A stretch of DNA of 53,836 nt from Candidatus Proteinoplasmatales archaeon SG8-5 (GTDB lineage Archaea; Thermoplasmatota; Thermoplasmata; SG8-5). Of the stretch, positions 2,709 through 38,259 are shown one piece after another. Positions within the stretch are counted from its first letter, which is position 1; each line of letters begins with the position of its first letter. A program made the position numbers and the translations under genes. The notes beneath the pieces are model-generated. The model did no database searches and was not told the origin of the DNA. It saw only the letters and a program-made list of their open reading frames with translations. The stretch is from positions 1 through 53,836 of the forward strand of contig LSSH01000059.1 in assembly GCA_001595885.1 (NCBI GenBank). Direction: 5' to 3'.

Positions 2709-3446
2709 ATGAAGTACGCACTGAAGTTCGCCTATGACGGCCAAGCCTTTGAGGGATATGCCAGGCAACCCGGTATGAGGACTGTCGAGGGAGAGGTCAT
2801 CGAGACAATGCAAAGCCTCGGAATCATCGAGGACCCGAGATCAAACGCGTTTCAAAGCGCTAGCAGGACGGACAGGGGCGTTAGCGCTGCCGGCAACGTG
2901 ATCGCCGTAGTAACTGGCTTTGACAAAGACGCGCTGATACCCGCACTCAACTCGAAGCTCGATGGGGCCGTGTTCTGGGGCATTGCCCAGGTCGAAGGCG
3001 GCTTCAATGCCAGGCACGCCAGGGAGAGGTGGTACAGGTACATTCTCCACCGCACCAGAATGCCGGACCCTAATGAACTTCAAACAGCAGCCAACCAGTT
3101 CGTCGGTGAGCACGACTTTTGCGATTATGCAAAGAAGGACACAGGGGAGGAGAATACGGTTTTGACAATCAACTCCATTGATATCAATGGGAACGCTGAC
3201 TTCATCTTCATCGACATCAAAGCGGAACGATTCCTCTGGCAGATGGTGCGTCGACTCGTCTCTTCAATGATGGATGGAGGAACTGGACCAGCGCCGGCCG
3301 AGAACCTCATCCTCATGGATGTGGCCTATGATTTTCCGTTTAATGAACCGACCGAGAAAGGTACGCCCTTTCTTAAACATCACATCAGTGCCCGAACCCG
3401 TGCCGAAGCCATGAGCCAGATAGATAAAATCATTACATCCGCTTGA
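2709..3446 (+). CDS. truA: tRNA pseudouridine(38-40) synthase TruA
   Basis: MKYALKFAYDGQAFEGYARQPG... followed by SASRTDRGVSAAGNV, which contains the catalytic Asp motif. Confidence 0.9.
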   Translation: MKYALKFAYDGQAFEGYARQPGMRTVEGEVIETMQSLGIIEDPRSNAFQSASRTDRGVSAAGNVIAVVTGFDKDALIPALNSKLDGAVFWGIAQVEGGFNARHARERWYRYILHRTRMPDPNELQTAANQFVGEHDFCDYAKKDTGEENTVLTINSIDINGNADFIFIDIKAERFLWQMVRRLVSSMMDGGTGPAPAENLILMDVAYDFPFNEPTEKGTPFLKHHISARTRAEAMSQIDKIITSA

Positions 3447-4728
3447 GGGGTTTTGAAAGGTGCCGCCGGGAGCCGACTGGCGGCTCGTACCAGCCGGTTG
3501 AGGCGGCTCTCCGCAGAGCCCTGAACTCTGCCTCGTTTTCCCCGACCTTCTTCCCGCAACTGCATCTGTAACCCTGGTCTTTGCCTATGGATTTCATCCG
3601 CTTGCTGCACTTTGGGCACATGGGATTGGCGACCTTTTCCCTCACATTGGCCAGCTTCTGGATCCTGACTTTTTCGACGTTGATCGTGAAGGGCTTCTCC
3701 CTGACGCCGCCCATGACGAGAAGCCGGTCTCCGGGAACGAGGACCTCGCCAATCCTCCTGAAGGATTTGGCAGGTTCGTAGATGGTGCAATCGACAACGT
3801 TATGGCCATTTGATAACGAAAATATCAAATGACCGCCCTTAATCGTCCTCGGAGCTGAGGTGACGTTTCCTATCACGCTGACTGATGTAAACGGCTCCAA
3901 ACGTGATATTGATGTGCGAGTGATGTGGTCGTCCGTGCCCTGGTTGGTGAGGAAAATCATATGCCTGGCTATTCTTTCCGACCTCACGGCGGCGGCTGCC
4001 TCGGGCAGGTCTTGTTCCTTATCCCCCCGGATGCCGTACAAGATCGGGCAGGGCGAGGCCGGTGCGATGACCATGTGCATCTCCTCGTAATCGTAGTTGT
4101 TGAATGTCGTGGGAAAGGCCCTGTCCATCTTCCTGACGCTGGCCTCATTGATGTTCCGGGGCTTGCCCCACATTATCTGCTCCCTATAAGCTATCAGTTC
4201 ATGCGTAGGGGCCCGAGGCCGCCAGGCAACTGCCGATATTGCTCCTATAAGGCCTCGGTTGTTCTTCCAGCCTTTCGAGAATTCGGGCTTGGCCAAGGCC
4301 ATGTGCCGTTTGAGGTCAACAACCTCCCTGACAGCCCCCCAGTACAATGCCTGGGGAGGTTTCCTACTTGTCATTATTAGGCCTGGATTGGTGTTGGCGT
4401 CTTCGAACATTGCCAGGTCCTCGATGACCCTGCAGGCGCGTTCGTAATGACCCTCCGTCGGCTTGGTGTTTGTACCCGACGGGAAGCATTCGACAGGTTT
4501 CCCGTCCAACTCTCCGATGGTCTTGGGCCTTCCTGAGCCGTTGCCCAGCTTCAGAGCTATGGCCCCGTTCCCCCTGGTCTTCCACGGCACGTTGGGGTTC
4601 AGCCGGACCAGGCGCGGGTGTTCCAGTAGGTCGAACTCGCCGAACTCCCTTATCAGCTCTGTTGCCAGGTATGTCGTGCACATGCCCCTGACAGAATCCG
4701 TGTCGTCAACCCCGATGTATATGCCAAT
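3433..4728 (-). CDS. tiaS: tRNA(Ile2) 2-agmatinylcytidine synthetase TiaS. The start codon is unresolved.
   Basis: GMCTTYL, RLNPNVPWKTRGNGA, and a C-terminal zinc ribbon (CPKCSKRMKS...CSCG). The first ATG is at 4683, but the conserved G-V-DDTDS motif is encoded upstream of it, at 4713-4693. The 5' limit given is the first near-cognate codon (ATT) after the in-frame TGA. Confidence 0.85.
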   Translation of the reverse strand: MGIYIGVDDTDSVRGMCTTYLATELIREFGEFDLLEHPRLVRLNPNVPWKTRGNGAIALKLGNGSGRPKTIGELDGKPVECFPSGTNTKPTEGHYERACRVIEDLAMFEDANTNPGLIMTSRKPPQALYWGAVREVVDLKRHMALAKPEFSKGWKNNRGLIGAISAVAWRPRAPTHELIAYREQIMWGKPRNINEASVRKMDRAFPTTFNNYDYEEMHMVIAPASPCPILYGIRGDKEQDLPEAAAAVRSERIARHMIFLTNQGTDDHITRTSISRLEPFTSVSVIGNVTSAPRTIKGGHLIFSLSNGHNVVDCTIYEPAKSFRRIGEVLVPGDRLLVMGGVREKPFTINVEKVRIQKLANVREKVANPMCPKCSKRMKSIGKDQGYRCSCGKKVGENEAEFRALRRAASTGWYEPPVGSRRHLSKPLKRM

Positions 4729-4731
4729 CCC

Positions 4732-5619
4732 TCACTTTGTAATCTTGGTCACCTGGCCGCACTCACATTCTATGACGTCGGCGCGCTCAACGTGGCGCTT
4801 GCACTTCGGGCACCTGGCAACGTTCTTGAAGAAGTAGTCGAGCCACGCCTCCCTCACCTCTTCCTCGTCCTCTTTCTCAATCTTCTCCACCATTGCCAGG
4901 TCGCCATCCTTTATCGTCATATTCCTGAGGACGTCGTAATCCAGGTTGACCTCCTTCTTTTCCCTCTTCTTCACGATGAGGGGCGCGATCACGATGCCGC
5001 TGACGATTCCTCCCACGTGAGCAATATGTGCCACGCCGTCGTCTATTGATATCATCACCAGAAAGGTCTCGACCACGAACATGATGCCGACGGCCAGCCA
5101 CACCGGCGCCCTGGTGGTGAAGAAGAAGCCGAGGATCATCGGTATCCTGTCCCTCGGATAGAGTATCAAAAACGCGCCGCCGATGCCGAATATCGCCCCG
5201 GACGCGCCGAGGAGGTGGGATTCCGAATCCATGTGGAGGAAGTAGAAGCTGAGGGTGGCAACGATGCCTGTGACGAAGTAGATGACCCCCCAGTTCCGGG
5301 TGCCGATGCGCTCTTCCAGGGGGAGTCCGAGGAGATAGAGTATCAACACGTTTCCGAGGAGATGTGCCGCGTTCGCGTGCATGAACATCGAGGTGATCAT
5401 GGTGGGTATGTACTCTAACTGGCCGAAACGCGCCGGCACGAAGGTCTGGTAATCAACAAGGCTCTGGGAGAGTGCGTAATCCGACGCATCCAATGCGAAT
5501 TGGTAAATGAAGATGATGATGTTGGCGATCACGAACATCTGGGATAGGTACGCCTTCCTCCAGATAACAACAATAATCGAGACTATGATGATGGCCGGGA
5601 TTGGGAGGATCTCCAACAT
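4732..5619 (-). CDS. Rhomboid-family intramembrane serine protease with a C-terminal zinc ribbon
   Basis: HANAAHLLGN (H-x4-H-x2-N), the catalytic Ser block GASGAIFG and the catalytic His block AHIAHVGG. Six or more TM segments. C-terminal CPKC...CEC. Confidence 0.85.
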   Translation of the reverse strand: MLEILPIPAIIIVSIIVVIWRKAYLSQMFVIANIIIFIYQFALDASDYALSQSLVDYQTFVPARFGQLEYIPTMITSMFMHANAAHLLGNVLILYLLGLPLEERIGTRNWGVIYFVTGIVATLSFYFLHMDSESHLLGASGAIFGIGGAFLILYPRDRIPMILGFFFTTRAPVWLAVGIMFVVETFLVMISIDDGVAHIAHVGGIVSGIVIAPLIVKKREKKEVNLDYDVLRNMTIKDGDLAMVEKIEKEDEEEVREAWLDYFFKNVARCPKCKRHVERADVIECECGQVTKITK

Positions 5620-5629
5620 GTGAGGGCCC

Positions 5630-6463
5630 CTAAGTGTATCTGCCGTCTATGAGGTCGTTAATGTATCTGGACAGGACGTTCAACTCGCCCACGTCGCCCT
5701 TCCAGTCCCTGAGCAGGACCTCGTAGTCGTCCTCGATCTCGTCTATCGCCTTCGAGATTTGGGGTCTGAACGGCTCTATCTCCTCTCCAATGACGACGGC
5801 GGCTATCGTGATGAACCTGCCCCTGCCTATAAGGACCTGGAAGCGTCCGAACTTCATCTGGTCCAGCTCTCCGCCCTCGCCCCTGAAGGAGTCCTTCACA
5901 AAGTCCTGAACGGCCGTCAGCATGCCGCTGAGTATGTCCTGGTCCACGTCGGGCTTTAGGCGGCGGGTGAAGTGCTTGATGAGGCGCCCGTCACGGGACA
6001 TCAGGAACACCTCGTCTATAATGGCCCTCTCGACCCTCAGTTTCTTTCCGCAATGGGGGCAGGACTTCCATTCTTCCTCCACCTTCTTTGCACAGTGGGG
6101 GCAGTTTATGGTCTTGGGCGGTGGAGGCGCGGGTTGCAGCACCGGTTGGGGAGCAGGTATCGGATAGGTTCGCGGTGGCTGTTGCGGGGTGGCTGAAGCG
6201 TCGCAGTGAGGGCACTTCGGCAAAGTCTTGAGGACCTTCCTCTTACAGGTCGCGCAGGTGAGCAATTTACCCTTTGGCCTGAACGCGATATAGATGATGA
6301 TGCCGAGTAAGGGAATGGCCCAGACGACGATGAACCATAAAGCGACCCTGAGTGCGCTTTTCTCGGCCGCCCCCCTGTTGACGCAATCGAAATAAGTCCA
6401 TATGGCCAGTACGAGGTTCGGGAACAGAAAAACCAGGCATATTGTCAGGATCGCTTCGATCAT
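5630..6463 (-). CDS. Membrane protein with a PLD-nuclease-N-like TM hairpin, two zinc ribbons, a Pro-rich linker and a C-terminal roadblock/longin-like domain
   Basis: N-terminal WFIVVWAIPLLGIIIYIAFRPKGK hairpin, then CATCKRK..CPHC and CPHCAKK..CPHCGKK, then PQQPPRTYPIPAPQPVLQPAPPPP. The alpha/beta tail assignment is by resemblance only. Confidence 0.5.
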   Translation of the reverse strand: MIEAILTICLVFLFPNLVLAIWTYFDCVNRGAAEKSALRVALWFIVVWAIPLLGIIIYIAFRPKGKLLTCATCKRKVLKTLPKCPHCDASATPQQPPRTYPIPAPQPVLQPAPPPPKTINCPHCAKKVEEEWKSCPHCGKKLRVERAIIDEVFLMSRDGRLIKHFTRRLKPDVDQDILSGMLTAVQDFVKDSFRGEGGELDQMKFGRFQVLIGRGRFITIAAVVIGEEIEPFRPQISKAIDEIEDDYEVLLRDWKGDVGELNVLSRYINDLIDGRYT

Positions 6464-7173: not shown

Positions 7174-7214
7174 ATACTGGCTCGGCGTTTTCATGACATC
7201 CAAGGGGGATACGG

Positions 7215-8153
7215 TTGAAGACGGCCATTATTGCTATCGGCGGTAACGCCCTTATCAAGGAAGGCGAGGAGGGTACAATCTACCAGCAGTTCGCCAATGC
7301 CAGGGATACGTGCGCGACCCTGATGGACATCGTCAAGGATGGGTATGAGATAGTACTGACCCACGGTAACGGCCCGCAGGTCGGCTTCGCCCTGAGAAGG
7401 CACGAGAGGTCCCGCGACGTTATCCCGCCCTATCCCTTGGGCGTCTGCGTGGCCGAGACCGTGGGCTCGATGGGCTACATGCTGCAGCAGACAATGCAGA
7501 ATACTGTCAAGCGGGTTGGCCTTGGGAAGGACACGGTCACGGTCATAACACAGGTGGTCGTCGACGCGGACGACTCCTCCTTCTCGAATCCCACCAAACC
7601 GATCGGCCAATATTTTTCAAAAGACGAGATCGATGTCAAGGTCAGGGAAGAGGGTTGGGACGTTGTGGAGGCCGGCACGCGAGGCTGGCGCAGGGTGGTG
7701 CCGTCCCCCAGGCCCATCCGCGTCGTCGAGAAGGACACGATAGGCCATCTGCTGGAGAGGGGGAAGATAGTCATCGCCTGCGGCGGCGGGGGCCTGCCAG
7801 TCATTGAACTAGAGGATGGTTCCCTCGACGGTGTCGAGGCCGTTGTGGACAAGGACTATGCCTCGTCCAAGCTGGCCCAGCAATTGGGCGTTGACGACTT
7901 CATCATATTGACGAACGTTGACAAGGTTTGCATCGATTATGGCAAGCCTGACCAGAAGGAACTCGACTCCCTAGACCTTTCCGATGCAAAGGGCCACCTC
8001 GAGGACGGGCAGTTCCCGCCGGGCTCGATGGGGCCGAAAATCGAGGCTGCCATCGAATTCCTCGAGAACGGAGGGAAGAGGGTCGTAATTACGTCCCACG
8101 GTTCACTGGTGGAAGCGGTTCGCGGCAACGCCGGCACCCATATCACCAGGTGA
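7215..8153 (+). CDS. arcC: Carbamate kinase
   Basis: IIAIGGNALIKEGE, VLTHGNGPQVG, and GGGGLPV. TTG start preceded by AAGGGGGA. Confidence 0.9.
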   Translation: MKTAIIAIGGNALIKEGEEGTIYQQFANARDTCATLMDIVKDGYEIVLTHGNGPQVGFALRRHERSRDVIPPYPLGVCVAETVGSMGYMLQQTMQNTVKRVGLGKDTVTVITQVVVDADDSSFSNPTKPIGQYFSKDEIDVKVREEGWDVVEAGTRGWRRVVPSPRPIRVVEKDTIGHLLERGKIVIACGGGGLPVIELEDGSLDGVEAVVDKDYASSKLAQQLGVDDFIILTNVDKVCIDYGKPDQKELDSLDLSDAKGHLEDGQFPPGSMGPKIEAAIEFLENGGKRVVITSHGSLVEAVRGNAGTHITR

Positions 8154-13234: not shown

Positions 13235-13546
13235 AGGCTAGGCTAACCGGGGGGGTCGGCGTCCCCTTATACACCGAAATCGTCGTTAGCGGGGGTGACG
13301 GCCGAGTGCGGCGTAACTGGCCTGTTGGCGGTCCTTATCACGACGATGAGGTTCTGTCCCATGGGGCTGGAGGTGACATTCGCGTGCAGCCGGAGGGCGG
13401 CACGGCTTGTCTTGGTTACGGGGATCGGGTCAGGCCCTGACGGGAGCAGCCTTACCGTTTACTACCAACGCTCATGGGGTTGCGGGACCGAGAAGGGGTA
13501 AGACTCCCGCCAGGAGGTGCAGGCGACAAGCTCGGTGCCTAGCACA
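13235..13546 (+). ncRNA. ffs: Signal recognition particle RNA (archaeal 7S RNA)
   Basis: 5' GGCTAGGCTAACCGGGGGGGTCGGCGTCCCC (Alu-domain start). Helix-8 motif GGTCAGGCCCTGACGGGAGCAGCC, compare E. coli 4.5S GGUCAGGUCCGGAAGGAAGCAGCC. The 5' GCTAGGC (13237-13243) pairs with 3' GCCTAGC (13537-13543). TTTTATGG box at 13208-13215 and an oligo-T (GCATTTTAC) just downstream. Confidence 0.85.
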
Positions 13547-14671: not shown

Positions 14672-15064
14672 TAGTCGCAGATGTTCTCCAGCGTGGGTTG
14701 TGATGTCATTCCCTGTTTGCCCACCCAGCGGTCACACCTGCCGTGTTGCGCAGGCACCAATCCCAATTTACAGGCCATTGCCGTTCACCAGCTTCGGATT
14801 GAAGGGCTATTATATCAATTTTGGCCTGTTTTCTATTTTCATGGGAAATGACTAAATATAGAAAGATTTATATTATAAACTATAATCCAATGCCAGAATT
14901 AATGGCTGAGTTGTTAATGGAAAGGGGGTGTTTGAACCAGATATAAAACCACCGTCGGAACCATCGCTGTTCTTATTGTAATATTCTCGATTATATTCGT
15001 CAGCTCGGCTCCCGCGTCCGCCCAGACCTCGACGCCGCTTACCGTCAGAGAACGGTACGAGGCC

Positions 15065-16207
15065 ATGGCCTTCGGTGCCGGACATCTGGTAATACCAATG
15101 GACGAGAAGCAGAACGACACCATATTAGCTTTCGGCGTCATCCATGCTCTGCTGAGGAACGGGACCATCTGCTACAGGCTCATCGGACCGCCTGCCCATA
15201 ATATCAAGACCCTTGACTATCCGGACGGCGTCAATTACTCTGGCGGACCCGTCGTGATAATGGACGTGAATGTCACTGTACTGAACGGCATCCAAGAGGT
15301 CTTTCCGAGCGTGACCGTCCATAATATCACCGGGACATTTGTGTCCAGGACCGTGTACAAGATCGATCGGCCTACTAGGATCCTGTTGCTGGCCAGAGAA
15401 GGGGCTGCGTTCCAGCACAGCCTATCAAAGATACTCCTGGACCAGATGCACATCCCCTATTCTGTTAAAATCATCTGGGCCTTAGAACCCACGGTGGACC
15501 TTTTCGAGAACGACCTGATAATTATTGAGGACCCGGGCGCGAAGGGCCTGTACTTCACAGGGAAGGGACACATCAAGAATGCGGTCGCCAATGGCCATAA
15601 CTTCGTGTTCATCGGTGATGCCATTAAGGATTTGACCGGGGTGTTCCCGCTACTGGTAACTGTGAAGGAAGGCGAGAGGGGCGAAGCCTACACCGCGACA
15701 TATTATCACACGGGCGAGTCGATATCCCAATATAGCGGGCCCGAACAATTATACGTTACAACCAGCAGGACCGTGGCAATAACGCCTACAAACCCGGGCT
15801 TCCAAACCATGCTGTATGCGCAGAGCGGAGATTCCCAGATCATATTCTCAGGGTATTACAGGTACGGAAAGGGCACTGTGGAGTTATTCTCGTTCGAGCC
15901 GGACGAGCAAGTAGGCGACATGTACACCCTGGCATGCATATTCTACGGTAACAGGTTCGTCCAGGCAGCTCCTGAGCCGCTCCCGCCGCCTTTGCCCTTG
16001 GTTTCCGGCGGAGTGCCCCTGCCCACGGGCACTGTCCCTCCACCGCCTCCGCCTCCGCCACCGCCGCCGCCGTCGATACCGATGGCGACGACCATTCCCG
16101 CGCAGTACCTGTTCGCAGGCTTCGCGGGCGTGGCCCTGGGCGACAGGCTCAGGTCAAGGGTGAGGCCGAAGATCGCAATCAGACATAAGATCAAGATCAG
16201 TACATGA
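15065..16207 (+). CDS. Exported or anchored protein of unknown function, with a P12 linker and a C-terminal hydrophobic anchor. The coordinates start at the first ATG, but the true N-terminus is probably upstream.
   Basis: 380-aa ORF. The in-frame upstream codons (14936-15064) encode a textbook signal peptide, KTTVGTIAVLIVIFSIIFVSSAPASA|Q, but contain no ATG, GTG or TTG. C-terminal tail: PPPPPPPPPPPPSIPMATTIPAQYLFAGFAGVALG, then basic residues. Confidence 0.65.
   Translation: MAFGAGHLVIPMDEKQNDTILAFGVIHALLRNGTICYRLIGPPAHNIKTLDYPDGVNYSGGPVVIMDVNVTVLNGIQEVFPSVTVHNITGTFVSRTVYKIDRPTRILLLAREGAAFQHSLSKILLDQMHIPYSVKIIWALEPTVDLFENDLIIIEDPGAKGLYFTGKGHIKNAVANGHNFVFIGDAIKDLTGVFPLLVTVKEGERGEAYTATYYHTGESISQYSGPEQLYVTTSRTVAITPTNPGFQTMLYAQSGDSQIIFSGYYRYGKGTVELFSFEPDEQVGDMYTLACIFYGNRFVQAAPEPLPPPLPLVSGGVPLPTGTVPPPPPPPPPPPPSIPMATTIPAQYLFAGFAGVALGDRLRSRVRPKIAIRHKIKIST
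16037..16072 (+). repeat. (CCN)12 tract encoding twelve consecutive prolines
   Basis: cct cca ccg cct ccg cct ccg cca ccg ccg ccg ccg, in frame with the 15065 ORF. Confidence 0.95.
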
Positions 16208-21705: not shown

Positions 21706-23172
<1,467 letters not shown>

Positions 23173-38186: not shown

Positions 38187-38259
38187 CGCCCCGGCCGGAA
38201 TTTGAATCCGAGTCCCGGGCTCGACAGGCCCGGATGATAGGCCACTACACTACCGGGGC
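38187..38259 (-). tRNA. tRNA-Asp (anticodon GUC)
   Basis: Hand-folded cloverleaf. Acceptor GCCCCGG/CCGGGGC with discriminator G. Anticodon stem CGGGC/GCCCG with loop CTGTCGA. T arm TCGGA-TTCAAAT-TCCGG. No encoded CCA. Confidence 0.9.

Follow-up and report, generated by a model that had tools for sequence, protein, structure and literature searches.

A near-cognate AUA codon as the probable translation start of tiaS in a Thermoplasmata archaeon

Background

Where does translation of tiaS begin if no canonical start codon precedes the part of the gene that encodes its DDTD motif? The question is raised by a 53,836-nucleotide stretch of DNA (contig LSSH01000059.1) of Candidatus Proteinoplasmatales archaeon SG8-5, which was analysed over its whole length and is hereafter called the window; all coordinates are window positions. 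A rhomboid protease gene (5619..4732, minus strand; PF01694, E=6e-29) ends there with a TGA at 4734-4732. Past this stop the same frame runs on as GGG ATT GGC ATA TAC ATC GGG GTT GAC GAC ACG GAT TCT GTC AGG GGC ATG TGC ACG ACA, that is, G-I-G-I-Y-I-G-V-D-D-T-D-S-V-R-G-M-C-T-T on the minus strand, with the Met encoded at 4683-4681. Inspection of this minus-strand reading frame revealed no ATG, GTG or TTG between the rhomboid TGA and DDTD, and the only ATN codons ahead of the first tiaS ATG are ATT 4728, ATA 4722 and ATC 4716. A run of 16 codons without a canonical start has a chance of about 45% and is unremarkable alone; the missing start is significant because homology shows what those codons encode.

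AUH starts (H denotes A, C or T, here and in ATH; DTG denotes the class ATG, GTG and TTG) are established in bacteria, where infC and pcnB are examples, and they are listed in translation table 11. A first-pass annotation of the window, made from the letters alone, had described the TGA at 4734-4732, the DDTD-containing motif, the ATT, ATA and ATC codons and a GAGG element beside them, and all of these statements proved correct when the frame was read again. It had offered three explanations: near-cognate AUA/AUU initiation coupled to termination of the upstream gene, readthrough of the TGA, and an assembly error.

The evidence presented herein suggests, with a probability that we put at roughly 85%, that tiaS initiates at the near-cognate ATA 4722 (4720..4722, minus strand). 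This codon aligns with the ATG, GTG or TTG of orthologues and with the ATT of the nearest relatives, and the residue that follows it matches the first position of the Pfam profile. The coding sequence so proposed, of 429 codons plus a TAA stop, occupies 3433..4722 on the minus strand, in agreement with Pfam domains, NCBIfam, a PDB match and the start position in 94 loci.

Results

Identity of the gene product and its N-terminus

The product is predicted to be TiaS, the tRNA(Ile2) 2-agmatinylcytidine synthetase, which would agmatinylate C34 of tRNA-Ile2. Its TiaS kinase (TCKD) domain (PF22641, E=1e-43) matches profile positions 1-142 on residues 5-145 of the stop-to-stop frame, and profile position 1 falls on the Tyr just after the ATA. 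The other domains follow in canonical order, namely FLD (PF08489, E=6e-34), an OB-fold (PF01336, at 27.0 bits exactly equal to the cut-off) and a zinc-ribbon (PF23783, E=3e-10). The best NCBIfam match is the TiaS equivalog NF040849 (E=5e-95), at 318.6 bits against a cut-off of 600 bits; this model was evidently trained on less divergent lineages. Among PDB entries, the crystallised TiaS of Archaeoglobus fulgidus is matched (E=3e-78), its residues 3-61 aligning with residues 4-60 here, DDTDS..GMCTTY included. The TCKD domain contains both the DDTD and the GMCTT (Thr18-equivalent) motifs, the residues of which are reported to be catalytic in structural work of 2011.

The DDTD motif (4696..4707, minus strand), found in every orthologue used, lies upstream of the first ATG (4681..4683, minus strand). 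The latter would encode Met14 of the proposed protein and is the start chosen by gene callers, and a protein of 416 residues begun there would be devoid of DDTD. A single tiaS copy was found in the host genome, a 1.25-Mb metagenome-assembled genome that is about 70% complete; its relatives carry the labels Methanomassiliicoccales or Thermoplasmata archaeon. The frequency of AUA in this genome is 21.6 per 1000 codons, and TiaS should therefore be needed.

The homologous start codon in relatives

The codon that corresponds to ATA 4722, five positions ahead of the first DDTD Asp, was read in a set of 94 distinct tiaS loci from Thermoplasmata. It is ATG in 35 loci and GTG or TTG in 6, while 30 others have a different codon there and a canonical start one to three codons further upstream. 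The remaining 23 have ATH without a nearby canonical start (ATC in 15, ATT in 5 and ATA in 3). Wherever this codon is the sole candidate start, it is always ATG/GTG/TTG or ATH and never of another type. Moreover, the distance to an upstream in-frame stop is only two or three codons in several ATH loci, e.g. TGA GCG AGC ATC (L010) and TGA AAC AGC ATC (L079), which leaves essentially no alternative start. The 13 codons ahead of the first ATG are kept as protein, with synonymous variation, in all ATH loci. The alignment of orthologues that the first-pass annotation had proposed was thereby carried out, and the ATA of the window coincides with the ATG, GTG or TTG start of orthologues.

The two nearest relatives (L182 and L031, 69% protein identity) have ATT in place of the ATA. 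The organism itself is also represented in another public assembly (L181; ENA ERZ27279932, a 49.7-kb contig), the sequence of which is identical, including the ATA. L031 is a 3-kb contig (CAYLYB010000193.1) that is filed as 'uncultured Pirellulales bacterium' and carries an archaeal rhomboid-tiaS pair at that 69% identity; it is almost certainly mis-binned.

A survey of the class covered 401 evenly drawn genomes from 105 genera, using the pattern ATH-N12-GAYGAYACNGAY-N15-TGYACNAC, the same pattern with DTG, and a reversed control. The ATH pattern was matched in 52 genomes (14 of the 105 genera) and the DTG pattern in 194, and the reversed control gave no match. Within one genus (g17), the same tiaS codon is ATC, ATG or GTG depending on the species. 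Of 30 further ATH loci that were inspected, 19 lacked a canonical start in the ten codons ahead of ATH; two had a GTG at a distance of ten codons upstream, and one had an ATG directly upstream.

Some genomes of the class deserve separate mention. Four of them (G151, on contigs C24 and C1, G133, G288 and G359) contain two tiaS N-termini on separate contigs, one being of the ATC type and the other of the ATG type in G151; these could be paralogues or mixed bins. A locus in a same-order genome (L020, G017:C122) has one in-frame TAG in tiaS, which could represent pyrrolysine, readthrough or an error.

The ribosome-binding site

The 16S rRNA gene lies inside the window (21706-23172, plus strand), and its 3' end, GGATCACCTCCT (23161..23172, plus strand), was used as the anti-Shine-Dalgarno (anti-SD) sequence. 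An SD-like element, GTGAGGGAT (4727..4735, minus strand), overlaps the rhomboid stop; its GAGG core (4733-4730) is 7 nt before the ATA, and its duplex with the 16S 3' end is predicted at -9.7 kcal/mol. L182 and L031 have the same TGAGG(T) motif as the window, and ATH loci usually have a good SD motif 4-9 nt upstream. With an SD scored as a contiguous match of at least 5 nt located 2-12 nt upstream of the start, 78% of ATH-type loci have one, versus 6% of ATG-type loci, and the median duplex energies are -9.4 and -5.7 kcal/mol, respectively (Mann-Whitney p ~1e-5, a raw value inflated by relatedness). Neither an RNA structure (z=+1.0) nor an Rfam element was found around the tiaS start, and a CAU-containing anticodon-mimic upstream of the start, compared by eye across lineages, is not conserved.

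Three features of a natural AUH start are found together at this locus: no canonical start lies upstream of indispensable residues, the codon is at the homologous position, and a ribosome-binding site is at working distance. Near-cognate AUA/AUU initiation is strongly supported, and homology together with the SD spacing fixes the codon as ATA 4722.

Evolutionary pattern

The 94 TiaS proteins were placed on a maximum-likelihood tree built with the start region excluded. On this tree, eight changes between ATH and canonical starts are needed, at least five of which are forced by well-supported branches; shuffled labels require 20.6 on average. The ATH clades are deep and mix ATA, ATT and ATC, as in family f4 (ATC, ATA, ATC, ATT and ATT), and the ATH state is patchy, being found in about 20-25% of Thermoplasmata. 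On this evidence, tiaS tolerates ATH and adopts it repeatedly.

Near-cognate starts elsewhere in the genome

The host genome was compared with 785 kb of a same-family genome (G002), which gave 292 reciprocal-best pairs, and genes were sought in which conservation at the protein level reaches further upstream than the first canonical start. Antisense shadow open reading frames (ORFs) and out-of-frame upstream genes were removed by filtering on score and identity and by reading the cases manually. Among these pairs, tiaS is the sole gene of the host with an ATH start, and two further genes appear to start at CTG behind SD motifs. One encodes an 834-residue zinc-ribbon protein with an apparent CTG start behind AGGGGTGA (contig C80 of the host genome, 2656, plus strand), and CTG is likewise present in the orthologue from G002; the other, 237 codons long (contig C71, minus strand, from ~845 downward), reads GGTGGTGAT-GGA-CTG, where G002 has TTG. 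Conversely, G002 has CTG where the host has TTG in two genes, one carbamate-kinase-like and one nitroreductase-like. Near-cognate starts (CTG or ATH) would thus account for roughly 1% of genes in the host's family, with ATH specifically recurrent in tiaS.

An SD-based scan of 900 long ORFs of the host genome showed no excess of ATH (ATA 4/146, ATT 10/127 and ATC 6/149, against a background of 7%), but such a scan is too coarse to detect the 4-nt SD of tiaS. In the same scan CTG was modestly enriched (15/89, p=0.001 uncorrected). A CTG candidate at ~14728 (minus strand) was a false positive, the GNAT gene in question starting normally at ATG.

Neighbouring genes and other features of the window

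The rhomboid protease gene (4732..5619, minus strand) has a C-terminal zinc ribbon and belongs to the same operon as tiaS. The gene order, a PLDc_N/zinc-ribbon membrane protein followed by rhomboid and tiaS (3433-6463, minus strand), is kept in L181 and L182, together with convergent truA and a SpoU methylase gene downstream. The carbamate-kinase-like gene noted above lies at 7197-8153 (plus strand) and has its TTG start at 7215; in G002, where this codon is CTG, no canonical start occurs for another 38 codons. In an ORF at 14936-16207 (within 14923-16207, plus strand), the codons ahead of the first ATG specify a clear signal peptide, yet no in-frame canonical, ATH or CTG start occurs there. 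GGGGGTG stands ahead of this ORF at 14923-14929, and an A4 run could hide a frameshift from an upstream GTG. Other RNAs recognised by Rfam in the window are a signal recognition particle RNA (13236-13544, plus strand) and one tRNA (38187-38259, minus strand).

Discussion

Initiation at AUA and the case against it

In the mechanism that we favour, the SD-like GAGG/GTGA element 7 nt upstream would place the small ribosomal subunit at AUA 4722-4720, and the initiator tRNA would be accepted there despite the third-position mismatch. The AUA would presumably be read by initiator Met-tRNA, the N-terminal residue being Met, and the product would be a complete TiaS, 429 residues long and with the DDTD motif. 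Across Thermoplasmata, the tiaS start would then toggle between AUG/GUG/UUG and AUC/AUU/AUA at one homologous position. In Escherichia coli, AUA, AUC, AUU and CUG are the four near-cognate codons that initiate at 1-2% of the level of AUG (10.1101/063800), and the same four codons are found as natural starts in the host's family.

Several points weigh against this reading. One is a report that archaeal aIF1 disfavours non-canonical starts (PMC6237735); another is that no organism in culture was identified in which tiaS is of the ATH type. In the window, the SD is a perfect match of only 4 nt (GAGG or GTGA). The association between strong SDs and ATH starts is not significant after phylogenetic pairing: five well-supported, phylogenetically independent contrasts gave 3.8 in the same direction versus 0.1 in the opposite one, with a median sign-test p of 0.125. 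In 8 of the 30 further ATH loci, an in-frame GTG located three codons upstream, within the SD-like GGGGTGGGA, is a possible start. Finally, third-base changes within ATH (six) do not outnumber switches between ATG and ATH (seven), so that the data speak for tolerance of a weak codon and do not demonstrate selection for one.

Termination-reinitiation

Of the other explanations, the one that survives best, though we consider it improbable, is termination-reinitiation, in which ribosomes that end at the rhomboid TGA would restart at the AUA with relaxed codon checking, instead of being recruited by the SD. The rhomboid stop and the ATA are 9 nt apart in one operon, an arrangement kept in the three nearest genomes, and in 12 of the 23 ATH loci an upstream ORF ends within 40 nt. 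In the other 11, however, no such ORF exists, and coupling is more frequent in ATG-type loci (28/35). On these counts, coupling to an upstream gene was rejected as a general enabling factor, and the coupling to upstream termination proposed in the first-pass annotation is not required. The strong SDs at ATH loci also fit independent recruitment rather than reinitiation. Still, reinitiation and SD-led initiation are not mutually exclusive, and the former may contribute at this locus.

Other start codons in the frame

There is very little to favour a start at the first ATG (4683), which would yield 416 residues without DDTD and imply a decaying or functionally altered gene. Gene callers and public records do annotate this start: entry P0001 of the database opens with MCTTYL, and 29 of the 120 closest database homologues of TiaS begin MCTT, including entries named tRNA(Ile)(2)-agmatinylcytidine synthase by NCBI. 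Such truncated entries arise because gene finders ignore ATH starts. The 13 codons upstream of this ATG are conserved as protein, and they agree both with the beginning of the Pfam domain and with the crystallised enzyme. In addition, the tiaS ORF is intact, AUA codons are abundant and no second tiaS copy was found, which makes a pseudogene unlikely.

The other two in-frame near-cognate codons, ATT 4728 and ATC 4716, are similarly poor candidates. The former is GTT in the nearest relatives and stands 1 nt after GAGG; the latter, 13 nt from GAGG, corresponds to a conserved internal Ile/Val/Leu of the Y-I-G motif.

Readthrough and assembly error

Readthrough of the TGA, by which a rhomboid-TiaS fusion protein would supply TiaS activity, is effectively excluded by the relatives. 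In the window, L182 and L031, rhomboid and tiaS do lie in one frame with a single TGA between them, so that the same-frame arrangement singled out in the first-pass annotation is conserved to that extent; it is absent from the rest of the family. In the same-family loci L002 and L004, the rhomboid stop is in another frame (in the sister genus it overlaps the ATG), and elsewhere the upstream gene differs. Many ATH loci have no upstream in-frame gene at all, which excludes a readthrough fusion as a general mechanism. Several (L010 and L013) have extra in-frame stops a few codons upstream, and the stops ahead of tiaS vary among TGA, TAA and TAG. The linker codons between TGA and ATH encode different residues (G-I-G versus G-V-D), unlike the conserved codons after ATH. 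TGA is also the commonest stop of the host genome (503 of 900 ORFs), and aragorn found no tRNA with a UCA anticodon, but only 16 tRNAs were detected in this incomplete genome.

An assembly or sequencing error that turned a true ATG into the ATA, one base away, is likewise effectively excluded by the identical ATA in the second assembly, by the ATT of the two nearest relatives and by the occurrence of ATH across the class.

Why a weak start codon?

The first-pass annotation had attached a special meaning to an AUA start on the gene for the enzyme that makes AUA decodable. This meaning does not hold up, as ATC and ATT are both more frequent than ATA among the ATH loci. AUC being the commonest codon and the sister taxa having AUU, the codon would therefore act as a generic weak start. 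The weak codon may be tolerated or favoured because very little TiaS is needed. In the simplest account, few TiaS molecules are needed because the enzyme has a single tRNA substrate, and selection on start strength would therefore be weak. A danger that excess TiaS could pose to other tRNAs with a CAU anticodon is a possible further reason.

A stronger version, which we regard as rather doubtful, is that the weak AUH start is not merely tolerated but is a selected limiter of TiaS dosage. TiaS would have to choose tRNA-Ile2 among three tRNAs that share the CAU anticodon, and with a near-cognate start whose weakness a strong SD makes up for only in part, the enzyme would stay too scarce to agmatinylate elongator or initiator tRNA-Met. 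Synthesis of TiaS would then be tied to the stringency of aIF1-dependent start-codon checking.

Comparison with known systems

The E. coli gene pcnB (poly(A) polymerase I, PAP I) resembles tiaS in being a single housekeeping gene with an AUH start (AUU) that encodes an enzyme acting on RNA 3' ends or tRNA. The AUU limits its synthesis, and its proteobacterial homologues are also thought to begin at AUU. Too much PAP I leads to polyadenylation of mature tRNAs and to cell death (PMC3561954). Thus, pcnB may serve as a model for keeping a tRNA-acting enzyme scarce, for TiaS by analogy only. It differs in being bacterial, with start checking by IF3, and in having a poor ribosome-binding site, whereas ATH-type tiaS genes mostly have strong SDs.

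Bacterial infC, which encodes IF3, is likewise a translation-related gene with a conserved AUH start, which is AUU, AUC or AUA depending on the species. Unlike tiaS, infC is autoregulated and senses its own product, the very factor by which non-canonical starts are rejected; for TiaS, no comparable loop is evident. Moreover, archaea have aIF1 instead of IF3, and the AUH start is near-universal in infC but patchy in tiaS.

Among archaea, ribosome profiling of Haloferax volcanii placed ~30% of putative alternative initiation sites at near-cognate codons (PMC7261190). These sites show that archaeal ribosomes can initiate at such codons. They differ from the tiaS start in having been set aside as possible false positives and in not being the sole starts of conserved essential genes (PMC7261190). 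A survey of start switches recorded one AUG-to-AUU change among 61,358 ancestral AUG starts (PMC5622118), and a literature search found no paper that describes an ATH start of tiaS.

Conclusions

The tiaS gene adds a new archaeal case, and a recurrent one, to a kind of weak start codon that is already known. For annotation, the consequence is practical: expressing the MCTT-truncated database entries, which are devoid of DDTD, would give a dead enzyme. With at least five to eight start switches in one archaeal class, tiaS offers a natural test bed for how aIF1 and aIF2 deal with third-position mismatches and for compensation by the SD. It also suggests a testable idea, namely that an enzyme that separates the decoding identities of AUA and AUG may need to be kept at a low level.

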